Shown here: piece after piece, positions 5,786 through 44,510 of the stretch
Layout: every line of letters begins with the position of its first letter
Position numbering within the stretch: position 1 is the stretch's first letter
From: a virus
Lineage: Duplodnaviria; Heunggongvirae; Uroviricota; Caudoviricetes
Strand: one strand, 5' to 3'
Virus record (IMG/VR): IMGVR_UViG_2721755710_000002
Length of the DNA: 44,549 bases
The notes under the pieces: model-generated
Databases searched by the model: none
What the model saw: the letters and a program-made list of their open reading frames with translations, nothing else
What the model was told of the DNA's origin: nothing
Translations under genes and position numbers: made by a program

Positions 5786-6618
5786 ACAGTTTAACGGCAA
5801 ATAACCGTTTGTCGCAACAGCTGGTGGTCAGCGTCGCTGAACACCTGTTGTTACGGCATGAATGCAGATTACCAAATCACCTGGCTGTAAGTAACCACAG
5901 AGAACTTTACCTGACTGTGGGGGGCGAGTTGTGCAGGAACTTAACCGCTGGTTTCGTGACGGAAGAGGACTTTATGTTCATGTTATTCGTTGGGAGCCAG
6001 AAACACAGCGCGTTATCTATCTTCGCAAAGACTACCCGCATGAGTGCTTTAGTCCTTTGTGGAAATTCAGGCGTGATTTTATTGAGTGTGAAGGACCACC
6101 AGCACATTGATTCTGCCATTCCGGGACGTTACACTGTTCAGGCACCTTATAAAGCGGGTGCCGGGATTGGCGTCCTGGAATTGATCAAGGCGATATATGA
6201 CGCGCCAGCGTCTTTTTTATCGTCCGCATTTGCTCACATCAAAGTTATGGTGGGCTGGGCGGGGGCATCGAAAGATGCGCCGGTTTCCTTGATCACCGGT
6301 TACGCCAACCCCGTTCAGTTCACCACCAGCGAAATTGGCGTTTCCGGTGGTGGAAGTATTTCACCGATCAAGGAGGCTGCCATCATGGCTACTGTCCCAG
6401 CCCTCACTCGTCTGAATGATGAAGACTTACATAAACTCAGTTATGTAACAACAGCACTACGTGCTCTGCGCAAGGTAACTCTTTCAGATCCGCAGGCGCA
6501 TCAACTTCTGGTAGAAACCCTTCTTAACTTGCAGGCTGAACGTATTCGTTTGGCGGATAAGGCTAATCTTCATATTCACCGTCTCCTGAATATCAGCGGA
6601 GGGCATCGTCATGCTTAA
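5782..6618 (+). CDS. hypothetical protein (278 aa)
   Basis: ATGA overlap with the upstream gene; no recognised motifs. Confidence 0.4.
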   Translation: MNSLTANNRLSQQLVVSVAEHLLLRHECRLPNHLAVSNHRELYLTVGGELCRNLTAGFVTEEDFMFMLFVGSQKHSALSIFAKTTRMSALVLCGNSGVILLSVKDHQHIDSAIPGRYTVQAPYKAGAGIGVLELIKAIYDAPASFLSSAFAHIKVMVGWAGASKDAPVSLITGYANPVQFTTSEIGVSGGGSISPIKEAAIMATVPALTRLNDEDLHKLSYVTTALRALRKVTLSDPQAHQLLVETLLNLQAERIRLADKANLHIHRLLNISGGHRHA

Positions 6619-31812: not shown

Positions 31813-34800
31813 ATGGGTAAAGGCAGCAGTAAGGGGCATACCCCGCGCGAAGCAAAGGACAACCTGAAGTCCACGCAGTTGCTGAGTGTGATCGATGCCA
31901 TCAGCGAAGGGCCGGTTGAAGGTCCGGTGGATGGATTAAAAAGCGTGCTGCTGAACAGTACACCGGTGCTGGACAGTGAGGGGAATACTAACATCTCCGG
32001 TGTCACGGTGGTGTTCCGGGCAGGTGAGCAGGAACAGACACCGCCGGAGGGATTTGAATCATCAGGTTCCGAGACGGTACTGGGTACGGAAGTGAAATAC
32101 GACACGCCGATCACCCGGACCATCACGTCGGCAAACATTGACCGTCTGCGCTTTACCTTCGGTGTGCAGGCACTGGTGGAAACCACCTCAAAGGGGGACA
32201 GGAATCCGTCGGAAGTTCGCCTGCTGGTTCAGATACAACGTAACGGTGGCTGGGTGACGGAAAAAGACATCACCATTAAGGGCAAAACCACCTCGCAGTA
32301 TCTGGCCTCGGTAGTGGTGGATAATTTGCCGCCGCGCCCGTTCAACATCCGGATGCGCAGGATGACGCCGGACAGCACCACAGACCAGCTGCAGAACAAA
32401 ACGCTCTGGTCGTCATACACCGAAATCATCGATGTGAAACAGTGCTACCCGAACACGGCACTGGTCGGCGTACAGGTGGATTCGGAGCAGTTCGGCAGCC
32501 AGCAGGTGAGCCGTAATTATCATCTGCGCGGGCGCATTCTGCAGGTGCCGTCGAACTATAACCCGCAGACGCGGCAATACAGCGGTATCTGGGACGGAAC
32601 GTTTAAGCCAGCATACAGCAACAACATGGCCTGGTGTCTGTGGGATATGCTGACCCATCCGCGCTACGGCATGGGGAAACGTCTTGGTGCGGCGGATGTG
32701 GACAAATGGGCGCTGTATGTCATCGGCCAGCATTGCGATCAGTCGGTGCCGGACGGTTTTGGCGGCACGGAGCCGCGCATCACCTGTAATGCGTACCTGA
32801 CCACACAGCGTAAGGCGTGGGATGTGCTCAGTGATTTCTGCTCGGCGATGCGCTGTATGCCGGTATGGAACGGGCAGACGCTGACGTTCGTGCAGGACCG
32901 ACCATCGGATAAGGTGTGGACCTATAACCGCAGTAATGTGGTGATGCCGGATGATGGCGCACCATTCCGCTACAGCTTCAGCGCCCTGAAAGACCGCCAT
33001 AATGCCGTTGAAGTGAACTGGATTGACCCGGATAACGGCTGGGAGACGGCAACAGAGCTTGTGGAGGACTCGCAGGCCATTGCCCGTTATGGTCGTAACG
33101 TCACGAAGATGGATGCGTTTGGCTGTACCAGTCGGGGGCAGGCGCACCGCGCCGGGCTGTGGCTGATTAAAACGGAGCTGCTGGAAACGCAGACCGTGGA
33201 CTTCAGCGTGGGTGCTGAAGGGCTTCGCCATGTACCGGGCGATGTCATTGAAATCTGCGATGATGACTATGCCGGTATCAGCACCGGCGGGCGCGTGCTG
33301 GCGGTGAACAGCCAGACCCGGACGCTGACGCTCGACCGTGAAATCACGCTGCCATCCTCCGGTACCACGCTGATAAGCCTGGTTGACGGAAGTGGCAATC
33401 CGGTCAGCGTGGAGGTCCAGTCCGTCACCGACGGCGTGAAGGTAAAAGTGAGCCGTGTTCCTGACGGCGTTGCCGGATACAGCGTATGGGGGCTGAAGCT
33501 GCCGACGCTGCGCCAGCGCCTGTTCCGCTGCGTGAGTATCCGTGAGAACGATGACGGCACGTATGCCATCACTGCCGTGCAGCATGTACCGGAAAAAGAG
33601 GCCATCGTGGATAACGGGGCGCACTTTGACGGCGACCAGAGCGGCACGGTGAATGGTGTCACGCCGCCAGCAGTGCAGCATCTGACCGCAGAAGTCACCG
33701 CAGACAGCGGGGAATACCAGGTGCTGGCCCGCTGGGACACGCCGAAGGTGGTGAAGGGGGTGAGCTTCCTGCTTCGCCTGACCGTGGCAGCGGATGACGG
33801 CAGTGAGCGGCTGGTCAGCACGGCCCGGACGACGGAAACCACTTACCGCTTCACGCAACTGGCGCTGGGGAACTACAGGCTGACAGTCCGGGCAGTAAAT
33901 GCGTGGGGGCAGCAGGGCGATCCGGCGTCGGTATCGTTCCGGATTGCCGCACCGGCAGCGCCGTCGCGGATTGAGCTGACGCCGGGCTATTTTCAGATAA
34001 CCGCCACGCCGCATCTTGCGGTTTACGATCCGACGGTACAGTTTGAGTTCTGGTTCTCGGAAACGCGGATTACCGATATCAGGCAGGTTGAAACCACAGC
34101 CCGCTACCTTGGCACGGGGCTGTACTGGATAGCCGCCAGTATCAATATCAAACCGGGCCATGATTATTACTTTTATATCCGCAGTGTGAACACCGTTGGC
34201 AAATCGGCATTCGTGGAGGCTGTTGGTCAGCCGAGTGATGACGCATCCGGCTATCTGGATTTTTTCAAAGGCGAGATAGGGAAAACCCATCTGGCTCAGG
34301 AGCTGTGGACGCAGATTGATAACGGTCAGCTTGCGCCTGACCTGGCTGAAATCAGGACATCCATTACGGATGTCAGCAATGAAATCACACAGACCGTCAA
34401 TAAGAAACTGGAAGACCAGAGTGCAGCGATCCAGCAGATACAGAAGGTTCAGGTTGATACAAATAATAACCTGAACAGCATGTGGGCCGTGAAACTGCAG
34501 CAGATGCAGGACGGACGCCTTTATATTGCGGGTATCGGTGCCGGTATTGAGAATACGCCAGCAGGAATGCAGAGTCAGGTGCTGCTGGCGGCAGACAGGA
34601 TTGCGATGATTAATCCTGCGAATGGCAACACAAAGCCGATGTTTGTTGGTCAGGGTGATCAGATATTCATGAACGATGTGTTCCTGAAATATCTGACGGC
34701 TCCCACCATTACCAGCGGCGGTAATCCTCCTGCATTTTCCCTTACACCGGACGGGCGACTGACGGCGAAAAATGCGGATATCAGTGGCAGTGTGAATGCG

Positions 34801-35292
34801 AACGCCGGGACGCTCAACAATGTCACGATAAATGAAAACTGTCGGGTTCTGGGAAAACTGTCTGCGAACCAGATTGAAGGCGATCTCGTTAAAACAGTGG
34901 GCAAAGCTTTCCCCCGGGACTCCCGTGCACCGGAGCGGTGGCCATCAGGGACCATTACCGTCAGGGTTTATGACGATCAGCCGTTTGACCGGCAGATTGT
35001 TATTCCCGCGGTGGCGTTTCGTGGCGCTAAACATGAGCGGGAGAATAACGATATTTATTCGTCATGCCGCCTGATAGTGAAGAAAAACGGTGCTGAAATT
35101 TATAACCGTACCGCGCTGGATAATACGCTGGTTTATACAGGTGTTATTGATATGCCTGCTGGTCGCGGTCACATGACGCTGGAGTTTTCGGTATCAGCGT
35201 GGCTGGTAAATGACTGGTATCCCACAGCCAGTATCAGTGATTTGCTGGTTGTGGTGATGAAGAAATCCACAGCAGGTATCACGATTAGCTGA
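31813..35292 (+). CDS. central tail fiber / host specificity protein J
   Basis: 1159 aa; N-terminus [45 protein letters not shown]… matches the recalled lambda gpJ start. Confidence 0.9.
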
Positions 35293-35360: not shown

Positions 35361-35960
35361 ATGCGTAAAGTTTGTGCAGCCATTTTGTCCGCAGCCATCT
35401 GTCTGGCCGTATCCGGTGCGCCTGCATGGGCGTCTGAGCAGCAGGCCACACTGAGCGCAGGGTATCTTCATGCCCGTACGAACGCTCCCGGCAGCGATAA
35501 TCTGAACGGGATTAACGTGAAATACCGTTATGAGTTTACGGACACGCTGGGGCTGATTACGTCATTCAGTTATGCCAACGCTGAAGATGAGCAAAAAACG
35601 CATTACAGCGATACCCGCTGGCATGAGGATTCCGTGCGTAACCGCTGGTTCAGCGTGATGGTGGGGCCGTCTGTGCGCGTGAATGAATGGTTCAGCGCGT
35701 ATGCGATGGCGGGTATGGCTTACAGCCGTGTGTCGACTTTCTCCGGGGATTATCTCCGCGTAACTGACAACAAGGGGAAAACGCACGATGTGCTGACCGG
35801 AAGTGATGACGGTCGCCACAGCAACATGTCTCTGGCGTGGGGGGCTGGCGTGCAGTTTAACCCGACCGAATCCGTGGCCATTGATATTGCTTATGAAGGC
35901 TCCGGCAGTGGCGACTGGCGCACTGACGGTTTCATCGTGGGTGTTGGTTATAAGTTCTGA
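35361..35960 (+). CDS. lom: Lom-like outer membrane protein (Ail/Lom/PagC family moron)
   Basis: Signal peptide plus beta-barrel; C-terminus …DIAYEGSGSGDWRTDGFIVGVGYKF matches the recalled lambda Lom. Confidence 0.85.
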   Translation: MRKVCAAILSAAICLAVSGAPAWASEQQATLSAGYLHARTNAPGSDNLNGINVKYRYEFTDTLGLITSFSYANAEDEQKTHYSDTRWHEDSVRNRWFSVMVGPSVRVNEWFSAYAMAGMAYSRVSTFSGDYLRVTDNKGKTHDVLTGSDDGRHSNMSLAWGAGVQFNPTESVAIDIAYEGSGSGDWRTDGFIVGVGYKF

Positions 35961-36013: not shown

Positions 36014-36024
36014 GTGGGGTGAAT

Positions 36025-39000
36025 ATGGCAGTAAAGATTTCAGGTGTACTGAAAGACGGTGCAGGTAAACCGGTACAGAACTGTACAATCCAGCTGAAAG
36101 CAAAACGTAACAGCACCACGGTGGTGGCGAACACGGTGGCCTCAGAAAATCCGGATGAAGCCGGGCGTTACAGCATGGACGTTGAGTACGGTCAGTACAG
36201 CGTTATTCTGTTGGTGGAAGGCTTCCCGCCATCGCATGCCGGGACCATCACCGTGTATGAAGACTCACAACCGGGTACGCTGAATGATTTTCTTGGTGCC
36301 ATGACGGAGGATGATGCCCGTCCGGAGGCACTGCGCCGCTTTGAACTGATGGTGGAAGAGGTGGCGCGTAACGCGTCCGCAGTGGCGCAGAACACAGCAG
36401 CCGCGAAGAAGTCAGCCAGCGATGCCAGCACATCAGCCCGTGAGGCGGCAACCCGTGCGACTGATGCTGCAGGCTCAGCACGTGCAGCCAGCACGTCAGC
36501 CGGACAGGCCGCGTCGTCGGCTCAGTCAGCGTCTTCCAGCGCAGGAACAGCATCAACAAAGGCCACTGAAGCATCAAAAAGTGCTGCCGCCGCAGAGTCT
36601 TCAAAAAGCGCGGCAGCCACCAGTGCCGGCGCAGCGAAAACGTCGGAAACGAATGCCGCAGCGTCACAAAAATCTGCGGCCACATCTGCATCCACCGCGA
36701 CCACGAAAGCGTCAGAAGCTGCCACCTCAGCCCGGGATGCGTCGGCTTCAAAAGTGGCGGCAAAATCATCAGAAACGAGCGCAGCCTCGAGCGCCGGCAG
36801 TGCAGCTTCCTCGGCAACGGCGGCAGGAAATTCCGCGAAGGCCGCAAAAACGTCTGAGACGAATGCGGATAACAGCGCACAGGCGGCAGCAGACTCACAA
36901 ACTGCATCGGCAAACTCCGCGACAGCAGCCAAAAAATCAGAAACCAACGCGAAAAATAGTGAGGCAGCAGCAAAGGTCAGCGAAACCAACGCTAAAGCGT
37001 CAGAGAACAAGGCGAAAGAATATCTCGACAAGGTCGGGGGACTCGTCAGCCCGATGACGCAATACGATTGGCCTGTTGTTACTGCTAGTGAGTCTCTTTA
37101 CATCAAGATCGCGAAACTTTCCGATCCTGGAACCAGCAGAAGTCATGTAACGCTAATGGTTACTAACGCTGGTAACTACGGCTCCCCTTACGGAAACATT
37201 GACTTTATCGAGATCTCGGCGCGCGGTCTGCCTTCTTTGCTTAGTGCGGATAATGTTTCTCGTCATCTGAGTATACGCCGCTTAGGGTCAACCGGGCTGA
37301 CCGATAACAACCAGATGCGTTACGGCCTGGTTAAAGGTGACGGCTTTATTGAGGTTTGGGCATTCCAGGGTGCGTTTATTAACGACGCAAAGGTTGCGGT
37401 GCTGGCGCAGACAACACTAAGCACAGAATTATACATCCCAGACGGATTTGTTAAGCAAACCGCCGCGCCTTCTGGATATATTGAAGGCAACGTTGTAAGG
37501 ATTTACGACCAGGTAAACAAGCCGACTAAAGCAGATTTGGGTCTTTCTAATGCTATGCTTACAGGCGCTTTCGGTCTTGGCGGTAGCGGGATATCAACAA
37601 ACGGCAAGATGAGCGATGTAGAGATCTTAAAAGCTCTGCGTGACAAAGGTGGTCATTTCTGGCGCGGTGATAAGCCGCCCGGAAGCACGGCGACCATTTA
37701 TAGCCACGGTTCTGGTATATTCTCGCGGTGCGGCGATACGTGGTCAGCGATCAATATCGACTACTCAACCGCGAAGATTAAGATCTATGCCGGCAACGAT
37801 GCCCGGCTTAACAACGGGACTTTTAGCGTCAATGAGCTATACGGCTCGGCAAACAAGCCGTCGAAATCGGATGTTGGACTTGGCAACGTAACGAACGATG
37901 CGCAGGTAAAAAAAACCGGCGATACAATGACCGGTGACTTGACAATCAAAAAAGGTACACCGTCAGTCTTCCTGCGGGCAGACAGTGGAGTCACCGCTTT
38001 GCGGTTTTATACTGGCGATAACACAGAGCGCGGCATAATTTATGCTGGTCCTAACACTGATTCGCTTGGCGAAGTTCGCATCAGGGCAAAGACAGCAGGG
38101 GGGACATCAGGAGGGGATCTTGTTGTTCGTCACGACGGGAGGGTTGAAGTCCGTGATCTCACAGTAGCGTATAAAATTAAAAGCAGAACGATTGAGATTG
38201 CAAATACCGACACTGACTCATCGGCAACTACGCTAAGCATCTATGGAGTACAGCACACGCCGTTGGTTTTAACGCGTTCTGGTTCTTCTGAAAATGTGTC
38301 CATTGGGTTTAAGTTAGACAACGTGAACCAAAAGTATCTTGGAATTGATACTAATGGGGATCTGGCTTTTGGTGAGAGTCCTGATCAGAAACAAAACAGC
38401 AAATTGATCACGCAAGCGAAACTCGACAAGGGATTAACGATTGGTGGTCAACTGGCTTTCAAAGGTACGACAGCGTTTTCAGCCGTTGCTACGTTCAGTG
38501 CCGGGATAGCAGGAGCCATCGAGCCGGAAAACATTGACGGCCAGACGGTTAATCTTAACAACCTGACCATCATCAAGTCAGATGTCGGGGCAGTTAAATA
38601 CTATATTTGTCCATCCTCTGCAGGTGGTGCAAATATTACCAATAAGCCTGACGGCATAGCCGGTAACTTTTTGCTTCGTGTAGAGTCGACTCGTAAGGTT
38701 AGGGATTCAGATTATGCGAACATGCAAACGCTGATTAACAGCGACACAAAACGTATATACGTTCGCTTTGTTGTTAATGGAAACTGGACAGCGTGGAGTC
38801 AGGTTGTTGTTTCCGGATGGAATCAGGATGTAACCGTCAGGTCGTTAACCTCGACGACTCCATCAAAATTAGGTGGCGGGCGGATTGATGTGCTTGGAAG
38901 TACTTCAGATTATGGCAGCATGAATTGTACCGTTCGTGGTGTTGATAGCACTGGAACCAATTCGGCGTGGTCGGTAGGCACATCAGAAAGCACAGGCAAA

Positions 39001-39804
39001 ATGTTGTTCCTGAAAAACCACAGAAGCAGCGCTCAAGTGCTGTTAAATGGCGATGATGGAGCGGTTCAACTACTAAGTGGCACTGTTAACGGGGCTACAG
39101 CGCAGGCGCTCACTATCAACAGGAATGAGGTTAACTCAACTGTTGATTTAACCCTTACAAAACAATCAGGGACTGGCAATCGTTTTGTTTTACAGAACTC
39201 AGGTAATGCAGAACTACCGTTTTCTGTCAGGGTGTGGGGTTCCAGTACTCGACAAAACGTTTTTGAGGTTGGTACGTCTGCTGCGTATCTGTTTTATGCG
39301 CAAAAAACAACAGACGGGCAAAACCTTACTGTAAACGGAAGTGTTAACTGCACCACACTGAATCAGTCATCAGACCGCAGACTGAAAGAAAATATCGAGA
39401 TTATCGATAACGCGACTGACGCAATCCGCAAAATTAATGGATACACGTACACGCTCAAGGAGAATGGGGCACATTGCGCCGGGGTTATAGCCCAGGAAGT
39501 TGAAGAGGCCATCCCGGAGGCCGTTGGTTCATTCATCCATTACGGTGAAGAGTTGCAAGGCCCGACCGTTGACGGCAACGAGCTACGCGAAGAAACGCGC
39601 TATCTTAATGTTGACTACGCCGCCGTGACGGGTTTACTTGTTCAGGTCGCCCGTGAAACAGATGATCGCGTTACCGCGCTGGAAGAGGAAAACACAACGC
39701 TACGTGAAAATCTGGCAACAGCAGACACCCGGATCAGCACTCTGGAAAATCAGGTAAGCGAACTGGTTGCACTTGTCCGGCAGTTAACAGGAAGCGAACA
39801 TTGA
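36025..39804 (+). CDS. stf: side tail fiber: lambda Stf-like N-terminus, Ala/Ser-rich repeats, divergent distal domain, C-terminal intramolecular chaperone (S74-like) domain
   Basis: N-terminus MAVKISGVLKDGAGKPVQNCTIQLKAKRNSTTVVANTV… matches the recalled lambda Stf; repeat region with reiterated AAKTSETNA units; C-terminal …SSDRRLKENIEII…GVIAQEV… chaperone signature from 39367. Confidence 0.85.
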   Translation: MAVKISGVLKDGAGKPVQNCTIQLKAKRNSTTVVANTVASENPDEAGRYSMDVEYGQYSVILLVEGFPPSHAGTITVYEDSQPGTLNDFLGAMTEDDARPEALRRFELMVEEVARNASAVAQNTAAAKKSASDASTSAREAATRATDAAGSARAASTSAGQAASSAQSASSSAGTASTKATEASKSAAAAESSKSAAATSAGAAKTSETNAAASQKSAATSASTATTKASEAATSARDASASKVAAKSSETSAASSAGSAASSATAAGNSAKAAKTSETNADNSAQAAADSQTASANSATAAKKSETNAKNSEAAAKVSETNAKASENKAKEYLDKVGGLVSPMTQYDWPVVTASESLYIKIAKLSDPGTSRSHVTLMVTNAGNYGSPYGNIDFIEISARGLPSLLSADNVSRHLSIRRLGSTGLTDNNQMRYGLVKGDGFIEVWAFQGAFINDAKVAVLAQTTLSTELYIPDGFVKQTAAPSGYIEGNVVRIYDQVNKPTKADLGLSNAMLTGAFGLGGSGISTNGKMSDVEILKALRDKGGHFWRGDKPPGSTATIYSHGSGIFSRCGDTWSAINIDYSTAKIKIYAGNDARLNNGTFSVNELYGSANKPSKSDVGLGNVTNDAQVKKTGDTMTGDLTIKKGTPSVFLRADSGVTALRFYTGDNTERGIIYAGPNTDSLGEVRIRAKTAGGTSGGDLVVRHDGRVEVRDLTVAYKIKSRTIEIANTDTDSSATTLSIYGVQHTPLVLTRSGSSENVSIGFKLDNVNQKYLGIDTNGDLAFGESPDQKQNSKLITQAKLDKGLTIGGQLAFKGTTAFSAVATFSAGIAGAIEPENIDGQTVNLNNLTIIKSDVGAVKYYICPSSAGGANITNKPDGIAGNFLLRVESTRKVRDSDYANMQTLINSDTKRIYVRFVVNGNWTAWSQVVVSGWNQDVTVRSLTSTTPSKLGGGRIDVLGSTSDYGSMNCTVRGVDSTGTNSAWSVGTSESTGKMLFLKNHRSSAQVLLNGDDGAVQLLSGTVNGATAQALTINRNEVNSTVDLTLTKQSGTGNRFVLQNSGNAELPFSVRVWGSSTRQNVFEVGTSAAYLFYAQKTTDGQNLTVNGSVNCTTLNQSSDRRLKENIEIIDNATDAIRKINGYTYTLKENGAHCAGVIAQEVEEAIPEAVGSFIHYGEELQGPTVDGNELREETRYLNVDYAAVTGLLVQVARETDDRVTALEEENTTLRENLATADTRISTLENQVSELVALVRQLTGSEH

Positions 39805-39987
39805 TATCCTTCAAGCTCTGAAGGAGGCTGTTCCCGGTACGTTCAGACTGTTGTTGAGCTGGAAATCGCAACGGAGGAAGAGAAAGCGTTACTGGCCGCA
39901 TGGAAAAAGTATCGGGTGTTGCTGAACCGTGTTGATACATCAACTGCACCTGATATTGAGTGGCCAGAAGAACCAGACACCGTGTAA
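39805..39987 (+). pseudogene. tfa: remnant of tail fiber assembly gene tfa (C-terminal fragment only, no start codon)
   Basis: Open frame without ATG encodes …[37 protein letters not shown], matching the recalled C-terminus of lambda Tfa. Confidence 0.6.
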
Positions 39988-40000
39988 GCAAAAAAGAAAA

Positions 40001-40037
40001 ACCGCAGACACGACGTATGCATGACGTGCTGCGGTTT
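40001..40037. terminator. long hairpin with flanking A/T runs between tfa remnant and the convergent GIY-YIG gene
   Basis: ACCGCAG…CTGCGGT stem with extra inner pairs; on the minus strand it is followed by TTTTCTTTTT. Confidence 0.55.
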
Positions 40038-40056
40038 ATGCTTATCACTTAAAGAC

Positions 40057-40875
<819 letters not shown>

Positions 40876-41236
40876 TCATTGCAAGGGCTCACAACCAGTA
40901 GTGTTGAGAAAACCATCGGAGAAATGAGGCTAAGCCTTTGAATTTACATAGTACAAAAAAGATACTTTTCCTCATAATGTGAGCTAATTTTATGTTTCGT
41001 TTGATGATTGGACCGGTCTCGAAAACCGTAGACACATAGTATGCGTTAATTTATGAACAAACTACTTGTCTGCTGTTTTTCTGTCATTAGTCGTATATAG
41101 AATGATTCTCTATGCCTAACAAAGCATCACCAGTGCTAGATTACGTTGTAGTCACTGTTTAAATATCCAGATAAAACATTTCCTTCTGGGTTGAATGAGT
41201 GATAAAGTTTCACCCATTAGACCCCTTGGAGGAATT

Positions 41237-42670
41237 ATGTCTGAATTTGAAGTGTTGGCACAGCATCTGCTGAAGGAAGCCGAGGCGGAAGAAAAGCTGC
41301 GACAGGAAAATGATAAAAAGCTTATCGAGAAAGTGCTGGAAATCTATGATCAGAAGTATGTGGCTGAATTACTGAGAAAAGTCGGAAAAAATGAGTGGAG
41401 CCGTGAAACCATTAACCGCTGGATTAATGGCAAGTGTTTACCAAAATCGTTGACTTCAGTAGAAGAGTCTCTTCTGCGTAAGATGCTACCAGAACCACCT
41501 GCAAACCATCCGGAATATGCTTTCCGCTTCATTGACTTATTTGCTGGAATTGGAGGGATACGGAAAGGTTTTGAGGCCATTGGAGGCCAGTGTGTTTTTA
41601 CCAGTGAATGGAATAAAGATGCTGTGCGTACATACAAGGCCAACTGGTTTAACGATGAACAGGTGCATAAATTCAATCTCGATATTCGGGAAGTCACGCT
41701 GAGTGATAAAACCGATGTATTGGAAACGGATGCTTATGCATATATTGATGAGCATGTGCCGGATCATGATGTGCTTCTTGCGGGGTTCCCGTGCCAGCCA
41801 TTTAGCCTTGCTGGTGTTAGTAAGAAAAACTCACTTGGTCGTGCGCATGGTTTTGAATGTGAAGCACAAGGAACACTTTTTTTTGACGTGGCACGTATTA
41901 TACGAGCAAAAAAACCGGCAATTTTTGTGCTGGAAAATGTCAAAAATCTGAAGAGCCATGATAAGGGTAAAACTTTCAAAGTCATTATGGAGACCCTTGA
42001 CGAGCTGGGCTACGAAGTTGCCGATGCTGCAGAAATGGGAAAAAACGATCCAAAGATTATCGATGGGAAGCATTTTTTGCCTCAGCATCGTGAACGCATT
42101 GTTCTGGTCGGATTTAGACGAGATCTGAATATTCACAAGGGGTTTACCTTGCGTGATATCAGTCGTTTTTATCCGGAACACCGCCCATCATTTGGTGAAT
42201 TGCTGGAGCCTGTAGTCGACAGTAAATATATACTTACGCCAAAACTATGGGAGTACCTTTATAACTACGCCAAAAAGCATGCAGCCAAGGGGAATGGTTT
42301 TGGCTTTGGGTTGGTCAATCCTGAGAATAAGGAAAGCATTGCACGCACACTTTCTGCCAGATATCACAAAGACGGATCAGAAATTCTTATTGATCGTGGT
42401 TGGGATATGGCAACGGGAGAGGCTGACTTTATGAATGAGAGTAATCAGGCTCGTCGACCACGCAGGCTGACTCCCCGAGAGTGCGCACGCCTTATGGGAT
42501 TTGAAAAACCTGGAGGGAAACCATTCCGTATTCCGGTTTCAGATACTCAGTCATATCGGCAGTTCGGTAACTCAGTTGTGGTGCCAGTATTTGAAGCTGT
42601 TGCCAGACTTCTGGAACCCTATATCCTCAAAGCTGTTTCTGCTGATGCTGGTAAGACTGGGCAGCCTTGA
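41237..42670 (+). CDS. DNA cytosine-5 methyltransferase, Dcm/M.EcoRII-like
   Basis: C5-MTase motifs [10 protein letters not shown] (I), [11 protein letters not shown] (IV), VLENVKNL (VI), [10 protein letters not shown] (X); GGAGG RBS 6 nt upstream of the ATG at 41237, giving 477 aa. Confidence 0.9.
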
Positions 42671-42704
42671 GAACATCTCCCGGCCTTTTAAGCCGGGAGT
42701 CAGC

Positions 42705-43913
42705 CTATGATAGTTCAGCGTAAAGCTCTATCAGCTCAGTAATGAATGCTCCGAGCGTTATTAATTCTTCTCTAACTGCTTCTGGGTATTTTTTATGTAA
42801 AGTTGATGGTACAACGAGTCTGACACCCGCATCTTTCATTTCTCGGTATTGTGCTGAAGAAACACCTTCTTGCAGTGTAAATAAATGTACCTGATGGATT
42901 TTATCTGCTTCATTCAGTATCTGACGCCAGCGATCTTTGCAGGTGGTCTTTACTGCCAGCATACGTAAGTTTTCTACAGGAAATTCAACGTTATGATATG
43001 CCTCTGCTGAAGGAAACAGGAAATCTGGTTTTTTATTACCTTCAGTAACTGCCTGAGTGGAGAAATGCCGTAGTCCGTGCTCGATAAAAAGCTTCTCTAG
43101 GTGAAGTTCAAGTGATTTGCCTGCCCTTGATTTACGTCGATTACTGACAGAGTTGGCTAATGCAATAAACTCATCTACAGAATCGAATCCTTTCTTAATA
43201 ATATCAAGAACATGTAATTCCTCGACGAGTAGAAAAATATCATACTCGACACGCCGACGGTCAATCAGTTGCTCATCTGGATCCTTGGAGTTTTTAGCAT
43301 AATGGCCAGCAGCATATTGAATAATTTCGTTTCCAGAAGGAAAACGCTTCTTCCAGTCTTCAGGAATAACATATTTATGATTTACTGGAGTTTGCTGAAG
43401 AGACAATCCGCCCAAAATTTGTCCGGCAGGGCCGGAAATTAGGGTTCCAGGTATGATTTCGCCAATAGCAGACTCGATGATATCCTCTTCATCGGGATTG
43501 ACGCAGACCCATATATCTACCTCGGAACAGTCAGTGTTCTGTTCGTTTAACCTGAAAGCAAGAATTGTGAGGGCTCCTGTATTTTCAGGGTTCTGTAATG
43601 GACTTCCTCTCCCCCAGCGCGTAATTCTTTTTTCGTTTCGGGTCTTACCAAAATAACGGTTGTTGTAATAAATTGCGCGTGCTTGGGTATCAGGGCAATC
43701 ATGGGATGATACATGCGCAGTAAGGAAGACTGAAGGGTTCAGTTCGCGAGTATGATTGATAGATGGAAAAAGCTTTTCAACGATATTTGAGGGGATATAA
43801 AGTCCGACCTGATGGCCACCTGTTGCGCCTGTGTCGTTTGCAGAAAGGCGTTTGATGTAGATAAAGTAATTCCCGCTTGCGATATCAAGCAGCCAGTTAT
43901 GAAAAACCGACAT
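42705..43913 (-). CDS. EcoRII-like type IIE restriction endonuclease
   Basis: ~402-404 aa; N-terminal …YIKRLSANDTGATGGHQVGLYIP… and overall sequence resemble EcoRII as recalled; convergent with the MTase. Start could be 43913 or 43919. Confidence 0.75.
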   Translation of the reverse strand: MSVFHNWLLDIASGNYFIYIKRLSANDTGATGGHQVGLYIPSNIVEKLFPSINHTRELNPSVFLTAHVSSHDCPDTQARAIYYNNRYFGKTRNEKRITRWGRGSPLQNPENTGALTILAFRLNEQNTDCSEVDIWVCVNPDEEDIIESAIGEIIPGTLISGPAGQILGGLSLQQTPVNHKYVIPEDWKKRFPSGNEIIQYAAGHYAKNSKDPDEQLIDRRRVEYDIFLLVEELHVLDIIKKGFDSVDEFIALANSVSNRRKSRAGKSLELHLEKLFIEHGLRHFSTQAVTEGNKKPDFLFPSAEAYHNVEFPVENLRMLAVKTTCKDRWRQILNEADKIHQVHLFTLQEGVSSAQYREMKDAGVRLVVPSTLHKKYPEAVREELITLGAFITELIELYAELS

Positions 43914-43990
43914 ATACATCCCTTTGTTAACATACAGTCAGGGTTAACATTTTTCCATAGTTATAGATAAGCGGCTAGGAACTTAAGGGA

Positions 43991-44147: not shown

Positions 44148-44510
44148 TGGTGGAGCTGGCGGGAGTTGAACCCGCGTCCGAAATTCCTACATCCTCGGTA
44201 CTACATGCTTAGTCAGTCTTTACATTCGCTTGCCAGCTGCGGACGGACACGCCACTAACAAACTAGCCTGATTAAGTTTTAACGCTTCAACCCCAGGCAG
44301 GGCTTCCACGCGATCTCTTTTGGGTTTGACCTCTCTTGATCCCCGTCCTAAGAGCGGAGGCTAGGGAGAGAGGGCTCTAAGCAGGTTATTAAGCTGCTAA
44401 AGCGTAGTTTTCGTCGTTTGCGACTATTTTTTGCGGCTTTTTACGAGGCCAACCGCCCCTCGGCATGCACCTTGGGTTTCGCAAATCCCGTCGAATCCAG
44501 AATCAGCCCC
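44148..44510 (-). ncRNA. ssrA: tmRNA (SsrA), 363 nt
   Basis: The reverse complement begins GGGGCTGATTCTGGATTCGACGGGATTTGCGAAACCCAAGGTGCATGCCGAGGGGCGGTTGGCCTCGTAAAAAGCCGCAAAAAATAGTCGCAAACGACGAAAACTACGCTTTAGCAGCTTAATAA (tag-peptide ORF …ANDENYALAA*) and ends …GGACGCGGGTTCAACTCCCGCCAGCTCCACCA. Confidence 0.9.

Follow-up and report, generated by a model that had tools for sequence, protein, structure and literature searches.

The window analysed here, a stretch of 44,549 nucleotides (nt) of Caudoviricetes DNA (IMG/VR record IMGVR_UViG_2721755710_000002), carries near its right end an intact side tail fiber gene, stf, followed by a remnant of the fiber assembly gene tfa. The stf gene lies on the forward strand at 36025-39804 and comprises 1259 codons and a TGA stop. 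Behind it come a spacer of 36 nt (39805-39840), the last 48 codons of tfa with their stop (39841-39987) and a GC-rich hairpin (39999-40037), all on the same strand. Rfam identifies a transfer-messenger RNA (tmRNA) on the reverse strand at the right end of the window (44148-44510), and the prophage, therefore, sits at ssrA. The anatomy of the locus points to a fiber whose receptor-binding end was exchanged together with most of tfa.

Domains of the side tail fiber

The upstream gene order is that of a lambdoid tail operon, with J at 31813-35292 and lom at 35361-35960 preceding stf. The fiber is encoded by a single intact open reading frame (ORF), which opens with GTG at 36019 or ATG at 36025; the latter gives the lambda-type start MAVKISG and a protein of 1259 residues. 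The predicted masses are 131.6 kDa at full length, 115.7 kDa for the mature subunit (residues 1-1115) and 16.0 kDa for the released chaperone.

Residues 1-134 (36025-36426) form a tail-attachment domain of the lambda Stf type, assigned to the Pfam family phage_tail_N (PF08400) with an E-value of 2.1e-71 and 238.6 bits against a cut-off of 26.6. Similarly, residues 1-94 match the chain 'Tail fiber protein' of PDB 9e7m/9mgh (E 3e-51), the sequence of which is that of residues 1-94 of lambda orf-401 (Stf). In BLASTP, 244 of 284 positions (86%) are identical to lambda orf-401 over residues 1-284, and past residue 284 no similarity was found either to lambda orf-401 or to the Stf of a sibling prophage described below. 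The first-pass annotation had put the lambda-like N-terminus at about 330 residues; the likeness holds, while its extent is shorter, as the protein match ends at residue 284 and the DNA junction lies at about residue 280. NCBIfam gave no meaningful match for Stf, the tfa stub or the GIY-YIG protein encoded further downstream.

The N-terminal domain runs into a region rich in Ala, Ser, Thr, Lys and Glu, as anticipated from the first inspection (residues ~101-335; 36325-37029), where these five residues make up 80% of the sequence. It holds four copies of 'AAK(T/K/V)SETNA', with the SETN core beginning at residues 207, 277, 305 and 319. Residues 285-335 prolong the Ala/Ser-rich repeats, yet they are not derived from lambda. 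The GC content is 0.53 for residues 1-100, 0.59 for 101-335, 0.484 for 336-934, 0.464 for 935-1115 and 0.516 for 1116-1259; the lower GC noticed earlier in the distal part is thus seen as 0.46-0.48 against 0.59 in the repeats. Long ORFs also overlap the repeats on both strands (36192-37057), two of them antisense (241 and 169 residues) and one in another sense frame (211 residues). Analogous to 'orf206b' of lambda, they look like a by-product of the biased composition of the repeats.

The middle fiber module covers residues 336-934 (37030-38826). The model predicted for residues 336-960 has a mean confidence (pLDDT) of 82.9 and a low global score (pTM), the latter being expected from a beads-on-a-string layout. 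It consists of a beta domain of ~160 residues (~345-505), a first knob (~520-620), a beta shaft (~635-805) and a second knob (~835-930). One of the two knobs resembles the knob of the R2 pyocin fiber, and the RefSeq names for the stf product include 'pyocin knob domain-containing S74 family peptidase'. The distal tip, presumed to be the receptor-binding end, follows at residues 935-1115 (38827-39369). It carries a 'VWG..TR..VFEVG..FY' motif of the T4 gp34/gp37 type and is common to the fibers of phages Ayreon and mEp460.

A search of representatives clustered at 50% revealed further breakpoints near residues 653, 805, 930 and 1055. Together with the exchange of module partners, these imply that the 'distal module' of the first-pass annotation is in fact several modules. 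In one representative protein, a related tip-plus-chaperone module (65% identity) is joined to a GpJ-type FNIII domain, and in another the module of residues 336-653 is linked to a Gp34_trimer end. A third representative, which combines a terminase ATPase domain with a fiber C-terminus, is probably an assembly or gene-calling artefact.

The protein ends in an intramolecular chaperone of the Peptidase_S74 type (residues 1116-1259; 39370-39801), whose signature had been recognized at first sight. Pfam places Peptidase_S74, the 'chaperone of endosialidase' (PF13884), at residues 1116-1167 of 1259 with an E-value of 2.6e-16 and 60.1 bits against a cut-off of 22. The sequence contains the chaperone motif SSDRRLKENIEII, including S1116 and K1121, the dyad codons being 39370-39372 for Ser1116 and 39385-39387 for Lys1121. 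Conservation was judged from an alignment of Stf residues 930-1259 with 63 diverse representatives from the 50%-clustered search, the best 120 protein homologues being E. coli entries of 98-100% identity only and unsuited to the purpose. Across these 64 sequences, D1117 and K1121 are invariant and S1116 is conserved in at least 90%. In Stf itself, Ser and Lys stand five residues apart, in the arrangement S-D-x-x-x-K.

The AlphaFold model of this domain matches the chaperone structures of endosialidase, GA-1 and MyRF, with the chaperone fold followed by a long C-terminal helix (residues ~1198-1256). The domain shares its Pfam family and the Ser-x4-Lys dyad with K1F endosialidase (3gw6), the GA-1 neck appendage (3gud), T5 pb1 (4uw7/4uw8), S16 gp37 (6f45) and MyRF ICA (7dc3). 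The C-terminal position, the fold and the terminal helix are also common to the solved S74 chaperones, although the sequence identity to most of them is just 13-24%; S16 gp37 is closer over 61-68 aligned residues. PDB profile matches to depolymerase N-termini (7vyv) were disregarded, as the alignments held full-length proteins with regions that are absent from Stf.

Junctions of the cassette and the tfa remnant

A sibling lambdoid prophage of E. coli FDAARGOS_1265, which occupies the same site (ssrA), served as the unreplaced comparison, and the junctions were mapped by DNA alignment with it. The sibling encodes a Stf of 1023 residues with a lambda-like distal end and an intact tfa of 194 codons. 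It shares identical downstream GIY-YIG, Dcm and restriction-enzyme proteins with the window, and its lom DNA is 95% identical.

The left junction lies after codon N280 (36864|36865), inside a 26-nt copy of the 'AAKTSETNA' repeat (36841-36866). Here the identity to the sibling falls from 92.7% (36700-36864) to 55% over the next 96 bases, and that to lambda from 85.5% to 52%. The same 26-nt repeat recurs on both sides of the break. At the right end, the final 155 bases of stf match the sibling at 45% and the spacer of 36-37 nt at 38%. Past the spacer, the identity climbs to 81% (39842-39905), then to 97.6% (39906-39987), and reaches 100% over 39988-40160. The alignment with stf and tfa that had been suggested at the outset thus sets the left junction after N280 and the right one at 39842. 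The arrangement of stf stop, spacer and tfa stub is the same in Ayreon and mEp460, and this is most simply explained by one ancestral event.

What remains of tfa is a start-less stub in the stf frame. With the intact sibling Tfa as the tblastn query, only residues 147-194 found a match (39841-39984, E 4e-22, 85% identical), which the stop follows at 39985-39987, and no second tfa-like match below E 0.6 exists in the window. In-frame start-like codons yield peptides of at most 23 codons and no complete ORF of about 194 codons; as it stands, the stub is non-coding. In RefSeq, too, the stub is entered as a partial pseudogene, under the label 'tail fiber assembly protein; incomplete; missing N-terminus'. 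The first-pass annotation had described a start-less tfa C-terminus directly downstream of stf, and this description proved accurate; all the other elements that it listed are likewise present, at E-values well outside the range of chance. From 39842 on, the sequence matches tfa 3' ends in 4613 of 5426 E. coli genomes, which makes it a ready homology arm. The TGA of stf and the stub (39802-39987) share a frame, so that the chaperone fragment would become 60 residues longer upon read-through; with a likelihood of 1 in 3, the shared frame is probably due to chance.

The hairpin behind the tfa stop is a putative terminator of the late operon, with a folding energy of -23.4 kcal/mol and a z-score of -5.3. 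Its conservation extends to lambda, Ayreon and mEp460. A consensus terminator scan did not call the hairpin at 39999-40037, as its T tract is short.

The sibling with its intact tfa, along with the sharp steps in identity at both ends, directly supports the view that a receptor-binding cassette was replaced here, as the first reading of the sequence had suggested. It is likely that recombination of at least four modules gave rise to this stf, which belongs to a lambdoid prophage at ssrA, with a self-chaperoning end taking the place of a Tfa-dependent cassette. The ancestral lambda-like cassette would have comprised the distal end of Stf and the N-terminal part of Tfa. The left crossover would have fallen in the 'AAKTSETNA' repeat and the right one in the highly conserved 3' end of tfa, leaving behind the start-less scar of 48 codons and keeping the downstream hairpin. 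Homologous or relaxed homologous recombination, with the repeat serving the left crossover and the tfa 3' end the right one, is the most likely route. Experiments have demonstrated that lambda recombines with prophages in stf, and also within a part of tfa that is 95% identical (PMC3945230).

Compared with lambda (Ur-lambda), the order J-lom-stf-(tfa), the N-terminal domain with the Ala/Ser-rich repeats, the tfa 3' end and the downstream hairpin are all alike. In contrast, the last 975 residues bear no relation to lambda Stf and finish with an S74 chaperone, and tfa is cut down to 48 codons; the lambda-like, Tfa-dependent distal end has been replaced. The locus offers a clean natural case of a receptor-binding cassette swapped between two routes of fiber assembly, one with a separate Tfa and the other with a built-in self-cleaving chaperone, and each crossover point could be placed to within a few bases. 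Junctions such as those after N280 in the KTSETNA repeat and near residues 328, 935 and 1116 could guide the design of helper-free chimeric lambda Stf proteins. The biology itself is not of a new kind, since tail fiber mosaicism, S74 chaperones and stf/tfa recombination are already established.

Proposed fiber assembly and alternative explanations

It is proposed that the lambda-type N-terminal domain docks a Stf trimer on the tail tip, and that the Ala/Ser-rich repeats and the knob-and-shaft module would together form the fiber. The distal tip (residues 935-1115) may then bind a surface receptor. The S74 chaperone (residues 1116-1259) would trimerise first and template the folding of the tip. 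Its self-removal, presumably catalysed by Ser1116 and Lys1121, would leave a mature subunit of ~116 kDa and a fragment of 16 kDa; the predicted products of such autocleavage measure 115.7 and 16.0 kDa. A separate Tfa would not be needed in this scheme because the folding would be templated in cis, and the new tip would alter the binding target of the side fibers. Recent surveys regard a cis-acting chaperone and a separate Tfa or adhesin as alternative solutions for the C-terminus, which vary together with the assembly genes (PMC11990801; bioRxiv 10.64898/2026.05.12.724579). The literature searched holds general treatments only, and no explicit account of an S74-type lambda Stf with a tfa scar was found in it. 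The same junction of stf stop and tfa scar occurs in the isolated phages Ayreon and mEp460, and it is therefore compatible with viable virions.

Some points weigh against this explanation. Autocleavage, Tfa independence, receptor binding and a change in host range are what knowledge of the family leads one to expect, and the structure models are of monomers, whereas Stf functions as a trimer. The 4-kb stretch is 100% identical to that of E. coli strain elppa10, and 2 substitutions separate this strain from the window across the 14.5 kb compared. At position 34756, within J, the window has C (Arg982) and elppa10 has T, a stop. J is thus intact in the window but prematurely terminated in the nearest RefSeq genome, and at least that prophage copy is, therefore, defective. 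Further, the median number of stf/tfa-like places per E. coli genome is 4, and a Tfa acting in trans is thus conceivable. Phage S16 gp37, with a similar C-terminal chaperone, still has a separate adhesin, gp38.

A different explanation takes the start-less tfa 3' end and the hairpin as more than a passive scar: they would be retained as the homology arm on the right, the counterpart of the 'KTSETNA' repeats at the left end, with selection keeping the stub in place. This is rather doubtful. If true, the stf locus would be a defined and reusable swap site at which lambdoid prophages trade whole receptor-binding cassettes with the fibers of unrelated phages, including Klebsiella siphophages, T4-like phages and even GpJ-type central fibers.

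It is quite unlikely that the locus is decaying, with the loss of tfa having disabled the fiber and stf being carried as an inert passenger in a cryptic prophage. The truncation of tfa and the pseudogene state of J in elppa10 would fit such decay, as would the IS1 or IS2 insertions that break this stf in some genomes, and lambda PaPa shows that side fibers are dispensable (PMC3945230). However, the 3.8-kb ORF is intact here, and hundreds of contigs carry intact alleles of 1259 residues that are 96-100% identical. J is whole in the window, the catalytic dyad is conserved, and plaque-forming phages bear the same scar.

The fiber might also depend on a partner from elsewhere, either a Tfa encoded by a second prophage in the same host or, as in S16, a gp38-like adhesin capping the tip once the chaperone leaves. 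The similarity to the C-terminus of S16 gp37 (6f45) and the several tfa genes of E. coli genomes speak for such a partner, which we nevertheless consider very unlikely. Between the stf stop and the hairpin there is neither a tfa nor any other ORF, and the window contains no second tfa. In Ayreon and mEp460, which bear the same scar, no downstream gene is annotated as an adhesin. Fibers of the S74 type, among them T5 pb1 and the endosialidases, are also known to fold without partners.

A tailspike-like beta-helix depolymerase in the distal ~800 residues, a fold that the first-pass annotation had proposed to look for by structure prediction, is highly improbable: no Pfam domain for a beta-helix or an enzymatic depolymerase was found in Stf, and the model gives a fiber of separate small beta domains and knobs instead. 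That the stub is expressed, through read-through of the in-frame stf TGA or from an internal GTG at 39916, and functional is hardly credible, for although it lies in the stf frame and is well conserved, the frame is a 1-in-3 coincidence, the only ORF available has 23 codons, any extension would ride on the cut-off chaperone fragment, and the conservation follows from recent common descent and from homology with intact tfa genes.

Related fibers, distribution and neighbouring genes

Three isolated phages have side tail fibers of the same architecture, with the left junction and the junction of stf stop and tfa scar in common. The fiber of Ayreon (MF807953) is alike over the whole gene, with 82% amino acid identity, and it differs mainly at residues ~640-930. 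The fiber of vB_EcoS-640R1 (ON470612) is 86% identical, its record stopping inside the gene. In mEp460 (JQ182728), the overall identity is 59%; residues 1-328 and 935-1259 and the tfa scar are shared, while the middle of ~600 residues is unrelated. Such a different middle shows that exchange of the shaft does not depend on either end. No functional characterization of these three fibers was found in the literature searched.

Looking beyond the lambdoid phages, the fiber of the Klebsiella siphophage vB_Kpl_K50 has similar 'SETNAK' repeats, a module of ~600 residues with beta domain and knobs (53% identity) and an S74 end. The 'L-shaped tail fiber' of Slopekvirus, T4-like phages of Klebsiella, likewise has the beta-domain/knob module, at ~40% identity, and an S74 end. 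The Klebsiella fibers differ from the present one in N-terminal anchor, tip, host genus and phage morphotypes. With R-type pyocins and T4 gp34-gp37, only individual domains are shared as building blocks, without overall collinearity.

The distal module had been called novel at first reading, a label that does not hold, since the exact protein of 1259 residues is already in NCBI as 'prophage tail fiber N-terminal domain-containing protein / peptidase S74'. Of 5426 complete E. coli genomes, 300 contain at least 80% of the 4-kb stretch, with identities of 96-100%. Thus, it is a common, already catalogued allele of a well-understood type of mosaic gene. In NZ_CP083478, which is 100% identical, the intact stf is annotated as a 'partial' N-terminal pseudogene (36025-37014) and a separate 'tail fiber domain-containing protein' of 267 residues (39001-39804). 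The latter is given an internal start, and ~2 kb between the two annotations carries none. This split looks like an annotation artefact, with no real disruption of the gene.

A cargo block (40057-43919) with a low GC content of 0.34-0.46 separates the tfa stub from ssrA and is identical in the sibling, whose stf differs. It encodes a LEM-3-like GIY-YIG protein (40057-40830, reverse strand), a DNA cytosine methyltransferase (41195-42670, forward) and a type II restriction endonuclease (42705-43919, reverse). In the early region of the prophage, Rfam identifies the small RNA isrK adjoining the C4 antisense RNA, at 6142-6218 and 6243-6330 on the forward strand.

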